Part shown: piece by piece, positions 43,421-51,662 of the stretch
How positions within the stretch are numbered: position 1 is the stretch's first letter
Layout of the letters: each line of letters begins with the position of its first letter
Source of the DNA: Treponemataceae bacterium
GTDB lineage: Bacteria; Spirochaetota; Spirochaetia; Treponematales; Rectinemataceae
DNA length: 64,000 bases
Assembly: GCA_963677895.2 (NCBI GenBank)
Contig: CAXXGJ010000002.1
Span: 341,083 to 405,082, forward strand
Direction: 5' to 3'
Notes under the pieces: generated by a model
Told to the model about the DNA's origin: nothing
The model's database searches: none
Seen by the model: only the letters and a program-made list of their open reading frames with translations
Position numbers and translations under genes: made by a program

Positions 43421-44542
43421 TTACAGTTCCACGATCCTCGAAGACGTGAGCACCTTGTGACCGGTTTCCGTTATGAGGATATCGTTCTCCAGCCTGACGC
43501 CGCCAAAATCGGGGTGGTAGAGGCCGGGTTCTATGGTGACGATGTTGCCAGGCTTCAAGATAGCCGTATTTTCTTTCCTTAAGTTGATGCCGGGTGTTTC
43601 GTGGGCTTCCAGTCCAATGCTGTGGCCAAGGGCGTGCGGCATGGAAAATCCGGCCGCGGAGAAATATTCGTCGACGGCGAGGGCTATGCCGCGGGCCGAG
43701 GCGCCGGGCGCGCAGCCGGCGACGCCTTTTTCGTAGGCTCCTTTGACCAGCTGGATCATCAGGTCCTGTTCCTTGGAGAAGGGGCCGCGCACAAAACTCA
43801 TTGTGACGTCGGTCGTGTAGCCGTCGATGACGATGCCGAAATCGAGAATCGAGAAGCCCTTCGTCCCGAAGGGACCGGCGCCGTAATTGGGGAAGGCGTG
43901 GATGCCGAAACTGCGTCCGGGGCCTGCCGCGAGCGTGTCGAAGCCCGTTCCCTCGGCCCCGGCGCCTCTGGCTTCCCTTTCGATAAAGAGGGCGACGTCG
44001 AGTTCGGTGGCGAGTTTCCCCTTTTTCATGCCTTCCTCAATCATGTCGATGAGATGGTCAGTGAGGGCCGATGCCCTTTCGTAGATGGCGAGTTCGCCCT
44101 CGTCCTTGACTGAGCGCATCTCGGACAGGGTCGAATCTATTCCGCCTTCTTCGCAGAGGAGGTCCCACTCGTCCAGGGCGCCGACATGGTCGACGAAGGA
44201 CGGGTAAGGCGTCGCCGCTGGCAGTTCGACCTTCTGGCCTGCGGGTACGCCCAGCTCGGCGAGCACGAAGCGCATGGCCGAGGCCGATCGTCGTCCGAAA
44301 TCCGTATAGGCGAAGATCTTGTCGACATGGGCCATCTTTTCGGCCATATTGCGGTCCCATGCCACGAGAGCCGAGGCGCCGTCCGCCCCGATCACGAGAA
44401 AAGCGTCGCCGGGCTGTCCGCAGAGATAGCGTACCGCCGGGCTCCGCATATGTTCGAAATCCTCGAAGCGGGCGGCGGCGATGCCGCGGCTTTTCAAGGC
44501 TTGGGCGACTTTTTCGCGTCGCTGGCGGTAAATATCGTTCAT
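43421..44542 (-). CDS. Xaa-Pro aminopeptidase/dipeptidase, M24B family
   Basis: RSVKD..E, DFG...GYTTDVT, HALGHSIGLEAHE.P, TIEPGLY..GGVRLENDI. Confidence 0.9.
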   Translation of the reverse strand: MNDIYRQRREKVAQALKSRGIAAARFEDFEHMRSPAVRYLCGQPGDAFLVIGADGASALVAWDRNMAEKMAHVDKIFAYTDFGRRSASAMRFVLAELGVPAGQKVELPAATPYPSFVDHVGALDEWDLLCEEGGIDSTLSEMRSVKDEGELAIYERASALTDHLIDMIEEGMKKGKLATELDVALFIEREARGAGAEGTGFDTLAAGPGRSFGIHAFPNYGAGPFGTKGFSILDFGIVIDGYTTDVTMSFVRGPFSKEQDLMIQLVKGAYEKGVAGCAPGASARGIALAVDEYFSAAGFSMPHALGHSIGLEAHETPGINLRKENTAILKPGNIVTIEPGLYHPDFGGVRLENDILITETGHKVLTSSRIVEL

Positions 44543-45708
44543 GCTTTTGCCTTCGCAATCCCGTCGAGGGTCGCCTTGAGAATTTCGAGACCGCGATCGA
44601 TTTCGGCATCGCTGATAACGAGGGGAGGCAGGAGCCTGAGCGTGTCGTCGCCGGCGGTGAGAATGAGGAGTCTGTCGGCGCGGCAGGCGGCGACGACGTC
44701 CCCCGGAGGAACCGAAACGCCGATGCCTATCATGAGACCCATGCCGCGCACTTCCTTGACGAGGGGATTCTTCCAGGAGCGCACCGTCGTCCGGATCTTT
44801 TCGCCCTTTCTTTCCACCTCGGCCATGAATCCCGGCGAAGAAAGCTCGTCGAGAACGACATTGGCGGCGGCTGCGGCCAGGGGATTTCCCCCGAAGGTGG
44901 TGCCGTGATCGCCGGGCTGGAGCACGTCGGCGCTGGGCCCTTTGGCCAGCACGGCTCCCACGGGAACGCCGCCCGCGAGCCCTTTCGCGACGCCGACCAT
45001 GTCGGGGTGAATTCCCATTTTCTGGTAGGCGAGGAAGGCGCCAGACCTGCCGATGCCCGTCTGCACTTCATCGGCGACGAAAAGGATGTCCCTTTTCCTG
45101 CAGAGCGCCTCGGCGGCCTTCAGATAGTCGGTATCGAGGGGATTGACGCCGCCTTCGCCCTGGATGGGCTCGAAAAGAAAGGCGCAGACGTTTTCGGTCA
45201 GCGCGGCGTCGAGCGCGGCGATGTTGTTCGCTTCGACATAGATGAAACCGGGCGTGAAGGGACCGAAGAACTGATGGAACTTGTCCTGGCCTGTGGCCGT
45301 GACGGTGGTGACCGTCCTGCCGTGGAAAGAACCCTTGAGCGTGACGATGAGATTCTTGTCGGGATTTTTTGCCGATCCGTATTTGCGAGCGATCTTGATG
45401 AGGCCTTCGTTGGCCTCGGCGCCCGAGTTGCAGAAGAAGACTTTGTCCATGCCAGCCATGTCGGCCAGTCTTTCGGACAGGCGCGTGGAAGCGTCGGTCA
45501 CGAAATAGTTCGAGACGTGGATGAGGCGGGCCGCCTGGTCGGCGATGGCCTTCACGAGCTTCGGATGCCCGTGCCCGAGCGAATTGACGCCTATTCCCGC
45601 CGTGAAATCGATGTATTCAGCGCCGTCCTTCGTGTAAAGGGTGGCGCCTTTCCCATGGTCCAGGACCAGTCCGGTCCTCTTGTACGTGTTCATCGTCTTG
45701 TCGTTCAT
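44539..45708 (-). CDS. argD: Acetylornithine aminotransferase
   Basis: DFTAGIGVNSLGH, FCNSGAEANE, SFHGRT, EPIQGEGG, DEVQTG.GR, AKGLAGG, HGTTFGGNP; start overlaps the argB stop. Confidence 0.92.
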   Translation of the reverse strand: MNDKTMNTYKRTGLVLDHGKGATLYTKDGAEYIDFTAGIGVNSLGHGHPKLVKAIADQAARLIHVSNYFVTDASTRLSERLADMAGMDKVFFCNSGAEANEGLIKIARKYGSAKNPDKNLIVTLKGSFHGRTVTTVTATGQDKFHQFFGPFTPGFIYVEANNIAALDAALTENVCAFLFEPIQGEGGVNPLDTDYLKAAEALCRKRDILFVADEVQTGIGRSGAFLAYQKMGIHPDMVGVAKGLAGGVPVGAVLAKGPSADVLQPGDHGTTFGGNPLAAAAANVVLDELSSPGFMAEVERKGEKIRTTVRSWKNPLVKEVRGMGLMIGIGVSVPPGDVVAACRADRLLILTAGDDTLRLLPPLVISDAEIDRGLEILKATLDGIAKAKA

Positions 45709-46568
45709 ACGATCATCGTCCCCATGCCTCTGTCGCTGAATAGCTCGATGAGGAGCGAGTGCGGCGACCGGCCGTCCAGAATATGTGTCGTTTTGACACC
45801 CAGCGAAAGAGCCTGCACGCAGCATTCCACCTTGGGAATCATGCCGCCGGATACTATCTTCTGCGCGATGAGGGCGGGAACGTCCTCGCGCTTGAGCACG
45901 GAGATGAGGGTGGCCATGTCGGCCACGTCCTTCAGGAGGCCGGGCACGTCGGTGAGAAGGATGAGCTTTTCGGCGCCGAGGGCGCCGGCGAGTTCGGCGG
46001 CGGCTGTATCGGCGTTGATGTTGTAGTAGCCGGTTTCGTCGTTCGGCCTGAGCGCGATGGTGGATACGACGGGGATGTACCCTGCGTCTAGCGCGTGGCG
46101 CACGATGTCAGGCCCCACCGAGGAGATTTCGCCGACCATGCCGAGGTCGACGCCGTTCTTCTGCAGGCGATTGGCGCGGAAAAGCCCTCCGTCGCCGCCG
46201 CAGATGCCTATCGCGGAGCCGCCCTGACGCTCGATGTGGGCGACGAGGTCCTTGTTCACCTTGCCGGCCAGAACCATCTGGACGATCTCCATGGTTTCAT
46301 CGTCCGTATAGCGGATTCCGTCGATGAAGACTCTTTCCTTGCCTAGTTTTTTAAGCATGCGGTCGATCTCCGGTCCGCCCCCGTGGACGAGCACCGGCTT
46401 TATGCCGACCTGCTGCATGAGGATGAGATCCTGGAGGACCGCCGCGCGGACGCCCTCGTTGATCATCGCGGCGCCGCCGTACTTCACGACGACGATCTTC
46501 CCCGTGAAGGATTTGAAATAGGGCATCGCCTGGATCAGAATGTCGACCCTGACATTATCGTTGATCAT
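45705..46568 (-). CDS. argB: Acetylglutamate kinase
   Basis: VVKYGGAAM, VHGGGPEI, NINADTAA, LTDVPG, GGMIPKV, HILDGR.PHS. Confidence 0.96.
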   Translation of the reverse strand: MINDNVRVDILIQAMPYFKSFTGKIVVVKYGGAAMINEGVRAAVLQDLILMQQVGIKPVLVHGGGPEIDRMLKKLGKERVFIDGIRYTDDETMEIVQMVLAGKVNKDLVAHIERQGGSAIGICGGDGGLFRANRLQKNGVDLGMVGEISSVGPDIVRHALDAGYIPVVSTIALRPNDETGYYNINADTAAAELAGALGAEKLILLTDVPGLLKDVADMATLISVLKREDVPALIAQKIVSGGMIPKVECCVQALSLGVKTTHILDGRSPHSLLIELFSDRGMGTMIV

Positions 46569-46658
46569 ATTCGCACTCCCCCTTTCCTGGGTGTTTATTC
46601 GCTGACCGTTAATTGCTGACTTCTGACTGCCGGCCGCCGGTTGCCTGCCGCCTCCGGA

Positions 46659-47876
46659 TCAGGTCCGATAGTCGCCGTTTATCCTCACATATTCGTAGGT
46701 GAGGTCGCAACCCCAGGCGGTGGCCTGCGCGTCGCCCTCATTCATCGTGACATAGATAGTCACTTCCTGGTAGCTGAGGATTTTCTTGGCTTTTTCCTCG
46801 TTGAAGGGAAGGGGAGCGCCGTTCTTGCACACCTCGATGTAGCCCGAAGCGCTCTCGAAGGCGATGTCCACTTTGTTAGGGTCGAAATCCTTGCGCGTAT
46901 AGCCCAGCGCGCAGAGAATCCTTCCCCAGTTCGCGTCAGCGCCGAAAATGGCCGTCTTGACGAGGCTGGAGCAGATGACGCCCTTCGCGAGCTCCTCGGC
47001 CTTGGCTTCGTCCGCGGCGCTCTCGACGGTGCACTCGATGAGCTTCGTGGCTCCCTCGCCGTCGCGGGCTATCATGCGCGCGAGCTGGGTGTTGAGCCAG
47101 TTGAGGCCTTCGTAGAAGGACCTGTAATCGGCGCCCTCCGTTTCAATGAAGGCATTGCCGGCCATTCCGTTGGCCAGGATGACGACCATGTCGTTGGTCG
47201 AGGTGTCGCCGTCGACGCTTACGCGGTTGTAGGTCTTCGTGACGGAAGCGGAGATCGCTTTCTGGAGCATGGCCGGACTGATGGCGCAGTCCGTCGTTAT
47301 GAAAGAAAGCATCGTCGCCATGTTGGGATGGATCATCCCCGAACCCTTGGCCATGGCGCCTATCGTCACCGTCTGCTCGCCTATTTCGAACTGGACGGCC
47401 AATTCCTTTTTTACCGTATCGGTGGTCATGATGGCTTCGCGCGCGTCGATGTTGCCCGTCTTGGAAAGCCCGGCCACCAGCTGTTCCATTCCGGCTTCGA
47501 TAATGCCCACGTCCAGCTGCTGGCCGATCACGCCCGTGGAGGCCACGACCACGTCGCTGGCAGAAACAGGAAGGCGTTCGGCCACGAGCGCCGCCATCCG
47601 CTTCGCCGCGGCGATGCCCGCCTCGCCGGTGCAGGTGTTCGCGTTGCCGGAATTGACGATGATGGCCTGGGCCTTGCCGTCCGCGAGATGTTCCATCGTG
47701 ACGAGAAGGGGCTGGCCCTTTACCTGGTTCGTCGTGTACGCCGCAGCGGCGCTGCAGGGCTTTTCCGACCATACCAAAGCCAGATCTTTCTTTTCCTTGT
47801 TCTTCCTGATGCCCACATGGACGCCGGATGCCGTAAAACCCTTGGCCGCGGTAACACCGCCGCGAATTTGTATCAT
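46659..47876 (-). CDS. argJ: Ornithine acetyltransferase
   Basis: NSGNANTCTG, STGVIG, AIMTTDT, KGSGMIHPNMATML, DGDTSTND, DGEGATK, WGCDLTYEYVRING. Confidence 0.96.
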   Translation of the reverse strand: MIQIRGGVTAAKGFTASGVHVGIRKNKEKKDLALVWSEKPCSAAAAYTTNQVKGQPLLVTMEHLADGKAQAIIVNSGNANTCTGEAGIAAAKRMAALVAERLPVSASDVVVASTGVIGQQLDVGIIEAGMEQLVAGLSKTGNIDAREAIMTTDTVKKELAVQFEIGEQTVTIGAMAKGSGMIHPNMATMLSFITTDCAISPAMLQKAISASVTKTYNRVSVDGDTSTNDMVVILANGMAGNAFIETEGADYRSFYEGLNWLNTQLARMIARDGEGATKLIECTVESAADEAKAEELAKGVICSSLVKTAIFGADANWGRILCALGYTRKDFDPNKVDIAFESASGYIEVCKNGAPLPFNEEKAKKILSYQEVTIYVTMNEGDAQATAWGCDLTYEYVRINGDYRT

Positions 47877-47938
47877 GCTCAACCTCGCTTTTATGCCGCG
47901 CGCAGGCGCGGCAGAACCAGCATTTTAATTCCGCCGCC

Positions 47939-48997
47939 CTAGAAAGCCGGAGGAACCATTCTGAGCCCGGCGGTTTCATCGAAACCGAGGGCGAGATTCA
48001 TGTTCTGCACGGCTTGGCCAGCCGCGCCCTTCACCATATTGTCGATCGTCGAAACGACGATTCCCGTCCTGCCGTTCGAGGAAAGATGGACGGAGATGTC
48101 GCAATAGTTCGAGAACTTCACGTTCCTGTTGCTGGCGGTCGCGCCGAGGGCGAGCACCCGCACGAAAGGTTCCTTCGAGTAGAACGACGCGTAGAGATCG
48201 CGCAGGCTTTTCGCGTCCATGGCTTTCTTCAGGCTGAAATAGATCGTGCTGACGATGCCCCTGTTCATGGGCGCCAGATGGGGGGTGAAGACGGAGGAAA
48301 CCGCCTCGCCGGCCATAATCGAAAGATAGCGGTCAATCTCGGGCTGATGCCGATGGGCGCCCACCTTATAGGGAGAAATCGCGTCCACGCAATCGACATA
48401 ATGCGTCGTCTGGCTCGGTTCGCGACCGGCGCCGGTGAGGCCCGACGCCGAATCGATGATGATGCTGCCGGAGTCCGCGATCCCGGCCGAGAGCGCCGGA
48501 TAGAGGCCGAGTTCGGCCGTGGTGGGATAGCAGCCGGGATTGCCTATGAGGCGCGCCTTGCGGATTTTTTCCCTATTGAGTTCGGGCAGCCCGTAGACGG
48601 CCTTGGCATGGAGCTCGGGCCGCGTATAGCTCTTTCCGTACCATGCGGTATAGGTAGCTTCGTCATCGCCAAAACGAAAGTCGGCCGAAATGTCGATGAA
48701 AAGTCCGCCTTTAGCCAGGCATCGTTCGGCCGCGGATTCGGCGAAGCCGTGGGGCAGGCAGGAAAAGAGAATGTCGGAGGCTTCGATCACCGCCTCGGCG
48801 CTTTCGAGCATCATTGGGGGATTGCCATAGCCCGTTTGATCCGGACTGCCGAAAGAGGGATACACTGAACCGAGCGCCTTGCCTTCGAAACTGACGGAGG
48901 AAAGGTGGAGCTGCTTGGGTTCCGGGTGGGCGAGCAGTATCCTGGCCAGTTCCGCTCCGGCATAGCCGGAAGCGCCAAGAATGCCTATCTGAATCAT
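47939..48997 (-). CDS. argC: N-acetyl-gamma-glutamyl-phosphate reductase
   Basis: GASGYAGAEL, DISADFR, YGLPE, NPGCYPT, SG.TGAG, HRHQPEI, DNMVKGAAGQA.QNMN; AGGAGG before ATG 48997. Confidence 0.96.
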   Translation of the reverse strand: MIQIGILGASGYAGAELARILLAHPEPKQLHLSSVSFEGKALGSVYPSFGSPDQTGYGNPPMMLESAEAVIEASDILFSCLPHGFAESAAERCLAKGGLFIDISADFRFGDDEATYTAWYGKSYTRPELHAKAVYGLPELNREKIRKARLIGNPGCYPTTAELGLYPALSAGIADSGSIIIDSASGLTGAGREPSQTTHYVDCVDAISPYKVGAHRHQPEIDRYLSIMAGEAVSSVFTPHLAPMNRGIVSTIYFSLKKAMDAKSLRDLYASFYSKEPFVRVLALGATASNRNVKFSNYCDISVHLSSNGRTGIVVSTIDNMVKGAAGQAVQNMNLALGFDETAGLRMVPPAF

Positions 48998-49129
48998 CCA
49001 AATCCTCCTGGACGGGGCTGAACTCCCGAGGGAACAATACCCCCAGGCTTTCACTATGGATAATAACCCTCAAAAAAATGAAGGTCGAGCTATTAATGTC
49101 TGTGGTTGTGGCAGGTGGCGGTCGACGCC

Positions 49130-49219
49130 TTACCTACGAACGGAGTAGAGTCGCGGTGTGCGCGGCTCGAACCCGAAAGTGAGAAGTGTTGGAAGGTAGA
49201 CAGGATAAGAGCGTTTCAT
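49130..49219 (-). CDS. Putative 29-aa leader peptide of the arg operon (MKRSYPVYLPTLLTFGFEPRTPRLYSVRR)
   Basis: GGGAGGAG RBS, ATG at 49219, five Arg codons ending CGT AGG TAA; lies between a TTGACA promoter motif and argC. Confidence 0.55.
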   Translation of the reverse strand: MKRSYPVYLPTLLTFGFEPRTPRLYSVRR

Positions 49220-49246
49220 ATGCTCCTCCCAGAATGGAATAGAAGT

Positions 49247-49319
49247 AATAAAATATAAATGAGAAAGTATGTCAACTGGGTAGTGAATAATTATACGTAT
49301 TATGCAATGATTATGCGGC
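49247..49319 (-). promoter_or_regulatory. arg operon promoter with tandem ARG-box-like sites
   Basis: Minus-strand TTGACA (49275-49270) followed by an AT-rich -10 zone; AGTGAATAATTATACGTA (49282-49299) and a weaker copy 20 bp further on. Confidence 0.5.
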
Positions 49320-49386: not shown

Positions 49387-50173
49387 ATGTCCGACGACAA
49401 GCATCTATACCTTATCCTGCATCCCAACCACTCCCTCATCGCTTCGCAGATGGACCCCGAGCATTTCATACGGCACTATGTCCAGGGTTCGACGCGCTAT
49501 TTCGAGGGAAGGCTCATTTTCGTCGAAGTCGATCCCGGTTTCAGGAACGCTTATTTCGATATCGATGGAGCCTACGCCGAGCTTGTCCCCCACGAGGACG
49601 GAAGACCCAAGGCCACGAAGTTCATCAAAAGCTACCGTGTCCTCGAACACCTGGATTTCGATGCCTTGGGCAGCCTCTATCTCTGCAATTCGATGGGGGA
49701 TTACGTCGAGCTGAAAAGCGCCGAATTCAACCCCGAAAACGATCCCGAAGAGTTCCGCATCATGCTGGAGATCAATCCCGTCAAATTCATCGTGCTGACC
49801 AAGTACGATTTTCGCGAATACGGACGTTTCATCACCGATCCCCACAATTCCAAGGGGGCGCCCAAGATGTTCTTCGCCCAGCTGGAATTCAACACGGACG
49901 AATTCATGAGGGATTATGAGGAAAACCCGCTTATCCGAGGCTTTGTTCCGGGGATTCATCCGGCCAGGCTCCATAGCGCCGTGCAGGAAGTGCGAACCAC
50001 GCCGGGAAAATTCGTGAAGGGGCTTATCCCTCGACTGTCCGATCGACAGAATCTCATACAAAGTGCTCAAGGACGGCTTCATGTTCGCCGGCGAAGGTAA
50101 ATACAGATACTATCCCCTGCTCAACCTGGATGAGGTGGAGCGCAAGTTCTACCGCTACTGGAAATCGATGTAG
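49387..50173 (+). CDS. Conserved hypothetical protein, frameshifted at the G-run 50019-50022
   Basis: GGAGG RBS; HLYLILHPNHSLIASQ..HYVQGS...; removing one G gives KGLSLDCPIDRISYKVLKDGFMFAG...YRYWKSM, ending at TAG 50173. Confidence 0.7.
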
Positions 50174-50242: not shown

Positions 50243-51662
50243 ATGGCAAGAACATACCTTGATACGGGGCGCCCGATAGTCGCCCTCGCAACGCCGCCGG
50301 GGCGCTCGGCTCTGGCTGTCATCCGCGCTTCCGGAGCGAAGGCGATCGAACTTTGCGCCCGGTGCTTTTCCGCGGGTCAGGATCTCGAAACGGCGCCTGG
50401 CTACACAATGCGCCATGGTTTCCTGATCGACCCCGACAGCGGCGAGCGCGTCGACGAAGTCGTGGCCGCCGTCTTCCGGGCTCCCCGGTCCTTCACGGGC
50501 GAAGACTCCGTGGAAATTTCCTGCCACGGGTCGGCGGCGGTAACGAGCCGCGCGCTCGCCGCGCTGGAGAAGGCAGGCTTCGCTCCCGCCCTGCCCGGGG
50601 AATTCAGTTTCCGGGCCTTCATCAACGGCAAGACCGACCTCGTCAAGGCCGAGGCCATCAACGAGCTGGCGGGAGCGCAATGCGAATCCGCCAGGGAAGA
50701 TGCCCTCCTGCGCCTGAGCGGGGTCCTTTCCAAAGAATTTTCGGCGCTGCGCGACGAAATGCTGGACCTCCTGGCCGTCGTCGAGGCCCACCTCGACTAC
50801 CCCGCCGAAGAGGGCGCCGACGAGGACAGCGAAGCCCCCGAAGGCTTCGAGGACCGCGAGGAAAACCCTCCCCTGGATGGCAAGGCTCTCGGCCTGCGAG
50901 CGGCGCCTCGCCGCGCTGTCGCGAAGCTATATAGGAGGAAGACTGAGACAGGAGGGCGCCCTCGTGGTGGTCGCCGGCCGGCCCAACGCCGGCAAATCCA
51001 GTCTTTTTAACCTGGTGGTGAGGGAAGAACGCGCCATCGTCAGCCCGGAACCCGGAACGACACGCGACTGGCTGGAAGCCTGGATAGAAGTGGGCGGCTA
51101 TGCCGTCCGCCTCGTGGATACGGCCGGCCTCCGCCGCGCCGAGGAAGGCATCGAGGCCGAAGGCGTCCGCCGCAGCCTCGATTTGAGCGGGAAGGCCGAC
51201 ATAATTGTCTATCTCGTGGACGGGAGAGCCGGTCTCGCGCCGGAGGACGAGGATTTCATCGCCCTCCATCCCGCCGCCCTTAAATTGTGGAATAAGCTGG
51301 ACGCTTCCGATTGCCTGCCGGTTCCTCCGGGATGGTTGGGCCTGAGCGCCCAAAAAGGCGATCACCTGGATCGGCTGGAGGCGGCCATCGAAAGCCTTCT
51401 TGCCGCTTCATCGCGGACGGGGGGAGCCTCAGGTTCCCGGGAGTCGTCGATTCGCGTCGCCAGCGCCCGGCAGAAAGGCCTCATAGACCGCTGCCTTGAG
51501 TCGATCGGCAGGGCCGAAGAGGGCGCCAAGGCCGGCGCGCCGCTCGACGGCACGGCTCTCGAGATCAGGGAAGCGGCGGATTTTCTGGGCGAAATCACGG
51601 GCGAAATCGCCGGCGAGGAAGTGTTCGACCGGATTTTCGGCTCTTTCTGTCTTGGCAAGTAA
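50243..51662 (+). CDS. mnmE: tRNA modification GTPase MnmE, split by a 1-nt frameshift near 50860-50875
   Basis: IVALATPPG, APRSFTGED.VEISCHG, PGEFSFRAFINGK in the first frame; GRPNAGKSS, GTTRD, DTAG, NKLD, FCLGK in the next frame. Confidence 0.92.

Follow-up and report, generated by a model that had tools for sequence, protein, structure and literature searches.

The argC-argJ-argB-argD operon in the window (the whole 64,000-nucleotide stretch of DNA analysed here) is preceded on the minus strand by a Shine-Dalgarno (SD)-led open reading frame (ORF) of 29 codons that ends in CGT AGG TAA, and Arg-terminated ORFs stand ahead of argC, and often ahead of argG, in the genomes of related environmental spirochaetes. 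The ORF is almost certainly a real regulatory leader, and it very probably senses the supply of charged Arg-tRNA. Whether it works as a terminator-less, ribosome-mediated attenuator, which would read that supply and act through Rho-dependent termination, we regard as an even question. With a little less assurance, we propose that arginine attenuation forms a regulon across the lineage: leaders of argC, argG and argJ that are unrelated in sequence would place CGT, a codon read by wobble only, at the stop, so that the dwell time of the ribosome there would gate Rho. Such a regulon, held with the same reserve, would need neither an RNA switch nor a special peptide, and would operate beside ArgR, or alone where ArgR has been lost. 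Among amino-acid pathways, arginine biosynthesis is the one usually cited for control by a repressor instead of leader peptides, and attenuation would enter it through a conserved leader with Arg codons on two operons. The system would also provide a minimal test of Rho gating by a starvation-stalled ribosome where neither a terminator nor an arrest peptide is involved.

The leader region ahead of argC

All four genes of the operon score above the NCBIfam cut-offs for argC, argJ, argB and argD, and the two best named relatives of ArgC are spirochaete records. The elements listed in the preliminary description, i.e., the ORF with its peptide and its CGT AGG TAA end, the SD, the TTGACA with ARG-box-like sites upstream of it, the C-rich tract, the hairpin and the stem, are all present where that description had placed them. 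Together with the smaller elements found here, they are as follows.

49284-49317, minus strand: ARG-box-like operators, 5' of the -35 hexamer; putative, by sequence
49270-49275, minus strand: -35 hexamer TTGACA, of which TTGAC is kept in relatives
49223-49230, minus strand: SD of the leader ORF, GGGAGGAG
49130-49219, minus strand: leader ORF of 29 codons, C-rich and G-poor (31 C, 16 G)
49133-49138, minus strand: putative control codons CGT AGG, immediately 5' of the TAA stop
49117-49129, minus strand: 4-bp GGCG/CGCC hairpin abutting the stop, close clade only
49098-49124, minus strand: C-rich, G-poor tract (14 C, 4 G), candidate Rho loading site
49065-49086, minus strand: core stem of a hairpin (-10.1 kcal/mol) about 43 nt past the stop, without U-tract; candidate pause hairpin
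49007-49047, minus strand: stem reaching the argC SD (-14.7 kcal/mol), not conserved
44539-48997, minus strand: argC-argJ-argB-argD operon, the regulated unit

One of the ARG-box-like 14-mers at 49317-49284 matches 13 of 14 positions of a consensus that was derived from these same loci, and the argG and argR promoters of this genome also carry ARG-box-like sites. The argC promoter is absent from the promoter-scan output for the window. Across the genome a -10 element 17 nt from the -35 is favoured (68 of 203 TAnnnT matches), and the hexamer at that distance from the argC TTGACA is TTTATT, without the conserved A. We note that the sole TAnnnT conserved among close-clade argC promoters (L003-L016) lies at 49255-49250, 14 nt past TTGACA, as against the 16-18 nt preferred genome-wide. 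The GGAGGAGC of the leader SD is invariant in all 22 aligned close-clade leaders. One contig of RNA run X5 is confined to the leader (49016-49224) at a depth of 2.7, too weak to define a transcript end. At gathering thresholds, Rfam yields rRNA and tRNA only in the window, with no T-box, riboswitch or other leader, and an NCBIfam search with the 29-residue peptide returns zero matches.

Arg-terminated leaders of argC and argG

A strong argC match is present in 57 of 69 family genomes, and 54 loci with upstream DNA plus one fragmentary locus give 55 for comparison. At 51 of these 55 loci, and in 17 of 18 genera, argC is separated from its promoter by an SD-led ORF that runs to 29-47 codons and has Arg within its last three residues; the genomes being kin, these counts measure conservation rather than independent events. 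The conserved upstream ORF anticipated for relatives is therefore borne out, and so are its terminal Arg codons: Arg is second-last in 50 of 53 argC leaders, 38 argC leaders end exactly in Arg-Arg-stop, and the others end in RK, LR, RRL, RRP or VRT. By comparison, the 941 free upstream regions of this genome hold 94 SD-ATG upstream ORFs of 12-55 residues, two of which end in RR; besides the argC leader itself, the background is thus 1 in 93. The dN/dS of the leader ORF over 20 related pairs (Nei-Gojobori, uncorrected for transitions) is 0.38, below 1 as had been expected of a translated leader, with 0.23 in the last four codons and 0.39 in the middle, and substitutions at codon positions 1, 2 and 3 number 114, 103 and 188. 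The constraint in the middle exceeds what control-codon sensing alone would require, and to that extent counts against the attenuator. Length is constant in the close clade (29-30 residues).

In other families of the order, such a leader precedes argC at two of five loci (L145 and L147). In a wider set of 80 fetched argC loci, of which two had no upstream DNA and one spirochaete locus with a leader was excluded from the counts, none of the 77 others shows a convincing leader, although many of these genes may be operon-internal. At L149 (G051:C1) a 10-codon ORF with two Arg codons, possibly leaderless, follows the promoter ahead of argC and was not counted as a leader. Among 204 candidates in this genome, no leader with a terminal run for another amino acid is convincing.

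The second arginine operon of the same genome carries a leader of its own, which differs in sequence from that of argC:

G000:C14:9443-9526: argGH leader (L112), 27 codons, ending RLRRR-stop, with ARG-box-like sites nearby

Its ATG directly follows a promoter-like pair, and the argGH leader is thus probably leaderless. An in-frame leader is present at 36 of the 51 argG loci of the family and absent from 14, and at one locus the motif is out of frame; L160, L161 and a second batch of 20 were scored by eye. All four genomes without an argC leader carry an argG leader, and 13 of the 14 without an argG leader carry one before argC, the remaining genome having no argC match. The out-of-frame case (L179, G079:C30) keeps the RLR-stop DNA motif upstream of argG, but a 7-nt deletion relative to L174 leaves it out of frame with the leader ATG; this may reflect decay, an assembly error or an RNA-level role, and the last of these would speak against the attenuator. 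At eight loci (L159, L175, L177, L178, L261, L266, L270 and L277) argG itself appears leaderless, starting right after a promoter overlapped by ARG boxes, and the Arg leader is absent.

The DNA pattern for Leu-Arg-Arg-Arg-stop was matched by 33 genomes among 151 from the order. Thirty of these loci were fetched, of which 17 lie before argG, one before argJ and 12 at unrelated places; nine of those before argG come from a second family and the argJ leader from a third. In other spirochaete families, none of 40 argG upstream regions, many of which may be operon-internal, has a convincing leader. The statistics below refer to 75 curated leaders (53 argC and 22 argG), from which four hits of a looser rule (L023, L138, L139 and L149) were dropped as not being promoter-proximal Arg-run leaders and into which L160 and L161 were entered by hand; 14 later argG leaders and the finds of the pattern search stand outside this set.

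RNA around the stop codon and the output of the leader

From the features seen directly (a conserved ORF, the preference for CGT, the set of tRNAs, the base composition, the rho and argR genes and the argG leader) we infer that the leader is translated, that ribosomes stall on it, which way control runs and that Rho is the effector, in the following course. Once ArgR has left the promoter, a ribosome would translate the C-rich leader ORF. With arginine short, it would stall on CGT, one to three codons 5' of the stop, where it would cover the start of the C-rich tail and block Rho loaded upstream; the RNA between the stalled ribosome and the polymerase would be too short or too folded for Rho loading (a median of 114 nt to argC, partly hairpin), and argCJBD would be transcribed. 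With arginine ample, the ribosome would finish and depart, exposing the C-rich ORF and tail, and Rho would terminate the transcript near the downstream hairpin.

The base composition suits such an output. C makes up about 37% and G about 19% of the leader ORF with its tail. Over the first 35 nt past the stop, the median C/G of 53 argC leaders is 2.2, against 1.0 for 789 control windows, and around the stop the median is about 2, a value that only 2.7% of control windows exceed. The Rho-type features proposed in the preliminary description are thus present as far as C-richness and a rho gene in this genome are concerned, while Rho as the output stays at the level of prediction. It is reached by elimination, as the likeliest output given few terminators, C-rich and G-poor RNA and no ribosome-switched SD. 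Against it, the leader of this genome is mildly rut-like at best (30 C and 20 G in the 80 nt around the stop, where 12 YC dimers compare with a median of 11 in the background), and the tail is partly paired, not clearly unpaired, in the folding models (medians 0.55 and 0.43). Moreover, with the whole ORF covered, the main ribosome-binding site (RBS) becomes easier to open by over 1 kcal/mol in 24 of 51 argC and 12 of 22 argG leaders. Taken together, these three points make SD pairing or mRNA decay a serious rival.

In this rival, which we consider unlikely on balance, the same Arg-tRNA sensor would act on translation initiation or mRNA stability, the pyrimidine-rich leader pairing with the main SD or exposing nuclease sites once the ribosome departs. 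The near-invariant CGC CTC CGT of the argG leaders contains an anti-SD (CCUCC within the RLR codons), and precedents are the mycobacterial polycysteine small ORFs (10.1101/834739) and Salmonella orf34 (PMC6386406). However, the consensus fold of 22 close-clade leaders, in which a 4-bp hairpin follows the stop, a helix covers the leader SD and four base pairs join the 5' end to the argC SD, lacks a helix between the Arg region and the main SD, and a control-codon region that pairs with the downstream SD and is released by the stalled ribosome, as in a translational attenuator, is not evident in the equilibrium models. When only the stalled ribosome is masked, the RBS opening energy changes by a median of 0.1 kcal/mol in 51 argC and 0.35 kcal/mol in 22 argG leaders and falls by over 1 kcal/mol in 12 of the 51 and in 3 of the 22; in the leader of this genome opening even becomes harder, from 13.3 to 14.4 kcal/mol. 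These energies come from equilibrium folding models, by which cotranscriptional states may be missed.

Occlusion of the argC RBS by the 49047-49007 stem, which had been put forward earlier, is not supported: the stem is not conserved, its region is absent from L011 and L012, and the stalled ribosome barely shifts RBS opening, so that the stem is probably incidental. An RBS-occlusion switch is not supported more generally either, there being no conserved SD helix and a median opening change near zero. One-shot initiation through a hairpin over the leader SD was also set aside: the energy for opening the leader SD is 11-15 kcal/mol in the close clade, a high value next to the genome median of 6.9 kcal/mol (524 genes), but it does not exceed that of composition shuffles (median z 0.1), and other clades lack the feature. 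The covarying stems that had been looked for did not appear, as no helix of the 22-leader consensus fold shows compensatory changes, including the 4-bp post-stop hairpin, which is retained in 20 of the 22.

It is improbable that the hairpin about 43 nt past the stop serves as a U-less, non-canonical intrinsic terminator switched by ribosome position. This hairpin keeps its position, though not its sequence, in 16 of the 22 leaders of the close clade (z < -1.5), and a terminator-like hairpin with a U-run occurs in 7 of the 75 leaders. The other 68 have no such U-tract, a terminator-like site was not found in the argC leader of this genome, and the intrinsic terminator expected of a trpL-type leader is missing, as is a conserved antiterminator over the control codons in the 22-leader consensus fold. 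In addition, the hairpin lies outside the footprint of a stop-bound ribosome, and argG spacers are no more folded than shuffles (z < -1.5 in 3 of 21). The seven leaders with a hairpin and U-run after the stop are L013, L016, L019, L021, L160, L168 and L171; to judge from this, some lineages may use intrinsic termination.

Arginine codons, ArgR and related systems

The feature that best defines what the leader senses is a synonymous choice. CGT occurs within the last three codons of 52 of 53 argC and 21 of 22 argG leaders, and supplies 79 of 110 Arg codons (72%) in these positions of argC leaders and 33 of 55 in those of argG leaders, compared with 25 of 162 Arg codons in the preceding part of argC leaders and 7.2% of Arg codons genome-wide (2610 called genes). 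The tRNA-Arg anticodons of this genome are GCG, TCG, CCG, TCT and CCT. No ACG anticodon is found among the 150 listed of 157 tRNA-Arg-like matches, which cover 67 of 69 family genomes and from which a divergent copy could be missed; since tRNA-Arg(ACG) was not found, CGT appears to have no Watson-Crick reader. The single-gene tRNA-Arg with anticodon GCG reads 43% of the Arg codons in this genome, and under the selective-charging model a tRNA of such kind is expected to lose its charge first. The choice of CGT thus makes a sharp prediction of the first tRNA-Arg isoacceptor to be discharged in bacteria without tRNA-Arg(ICG). One point runs the other way: close-clade leaders mostly have AGG or AGA as their final codon.

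The CGT bias and the missing ACG tRNA favour charged Arg-tRNA over a ligand-binding arrest peptide. TnaC and SpeFL are ligand-induced arrest peptides and had been the leading analogy for this leader; a nascent-peptide sensor of that type would stall at the stop codon in response to free arginine, ornithine or citrulline. The stop-adjacent Arg, the C-rich tract and the downstream hairpin do resemble the tnaC geometry, and the constant length and low dN/dS of the close clade would suit such a peptide. Across the 75 leaders, however, lengths range from 10 to 47 residues, the stop is TAA in 45, TGA in 24 and TAG in 6, up to two non-Arg codons may come between the Arg run and the stop, and no residue beyond the terminal Arg run, in the tunnel or elsewhere, is common to the clades, while the synonymous codon is what stays conserved. 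Stalling by the end product would also be predicted to turn biosynthesis on when it is unneeded. A peptide of this type is accordingly quite improbable, and sensing of ornithine in particular is left without support by the same length, stop-codon and CGT evidence. What the leaders do present is two features of a control-codon attenuator, i.e., an SD-led ORF before a biosynthetic operon and conserved cognate codons with little other conservation of the peptide.

ArgR is encoded in this genome and in 64 of 69 family genomes, and the presence of argR and ARG-box-like sites beside the leader is in keeping with the layering on ArgR control that had been suggested. Three genomes, two of them 94-97% complete, show no match to ArgR; they keep the argG leader but have none before argC. 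The leader can therefore persist without the repressor, and co-loss of leader and ArgR was rejected on that ground. That the ORF is incidental and ArgR alone controls the operon is highly improbable, for although most genomes have ArgR and ARG boxes and some loci have no leader, Arg-terminated ORFs stand on two independent arg operons, far above the 1 in 93 background, and the argG leader outlasts ArgR in those three genomes. Other ARG-box-like sites of this genome lie at G000:C2:318343-318469, C18:154029-154050, C38:44137 and C38:452751; the genes that follow, which from their sequences we take to encode a secreted protein and hydrolase-like, carbamate-kinase-like, glutamate-dehydrogenase-like and aminotransferase proteins, are possible members of the ArgR regulon.

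In the leaders of trpL, hisL, leuL, thrL and ilvB, cognate codons sense charged tRNA and the response is set by terminator and antiterminator hairpins with a U-tract. The spirochaete leaders share with them an ORF with cognate codons ahead of a biosynthetic operon, but mostly have no U-tract terminator, and their control codons adjoin the stop. A classical control-codon attenuator is described for ilvB1 of Mycobacterium tuberculosis in PMC13236596. The nearest relatives in design are the mycobacterial polycysteine leaderless small ORFs, predicted first in PMC1262725, for which, according to 10.1101/834739, the stalled ribosome is the ON state and the tested case works through SD pairing. Both systems place a run of cognate codons close to the stop, extend to more than one operon of a single pathway, include leaderless members and have no intrinsic terminator; unlike the cysteine system, the present one uses arginine, shows no evident SD pairing, conserves one rare synonymous codon and is layered with a repressor. 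In PMC1262725, arg leaders were not found in Actinobacteria, and T-boxes are cited for other taxa.

In tnaC and speFL/orf34, leader translation shields a C-rich Rho site, as is proposed here, but these serve catabolic or polyamine genes through a conserved peptide and ligand-induced arrest. The Salmonella orf34, whose tandem Arg codons report arginine, has its Arg pair internally and acts through RNase G (PMC6386406). Staphylococcus aureus rbfL is a short leader with terminal Arg codons that senses arginine limitation by ribosome pausing; it differs in having 8 codons, in using AGA/AGG, in overlapping the downstream SD and in that stalling represses its target, a biofilm regulator (PMC13009471). 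The Escherichia coli argL is a small ORF that precedes and overlaps the start of argF and whose removal raises expression; like the spirochaete leader it stands before an arginine biosynthesis gene, but the consulted sections of 10.1101/511675 report no arginine sensing. An attenuator of arginine biosynthesis was not found in the literature searched, which covered few subscription papers.

Two neighbouring genes of the window appear interrupted. A divergent conserved hypothetical gene (49387-50100, plus strand) has 591 homologs, the named ones being spirochaetal, and matches neither Pfam nor NCBIfam; its homologs are about 261 residues long and identity ends at residue 213 of 237, which suggests a frameshift or an assembly indel. 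Further along, at 50243-51662 (plus strand), one gene, from its sequence presumably mnmE/trmE-like, seems split into two overlapping ORFs, possibly by an assembly indel.
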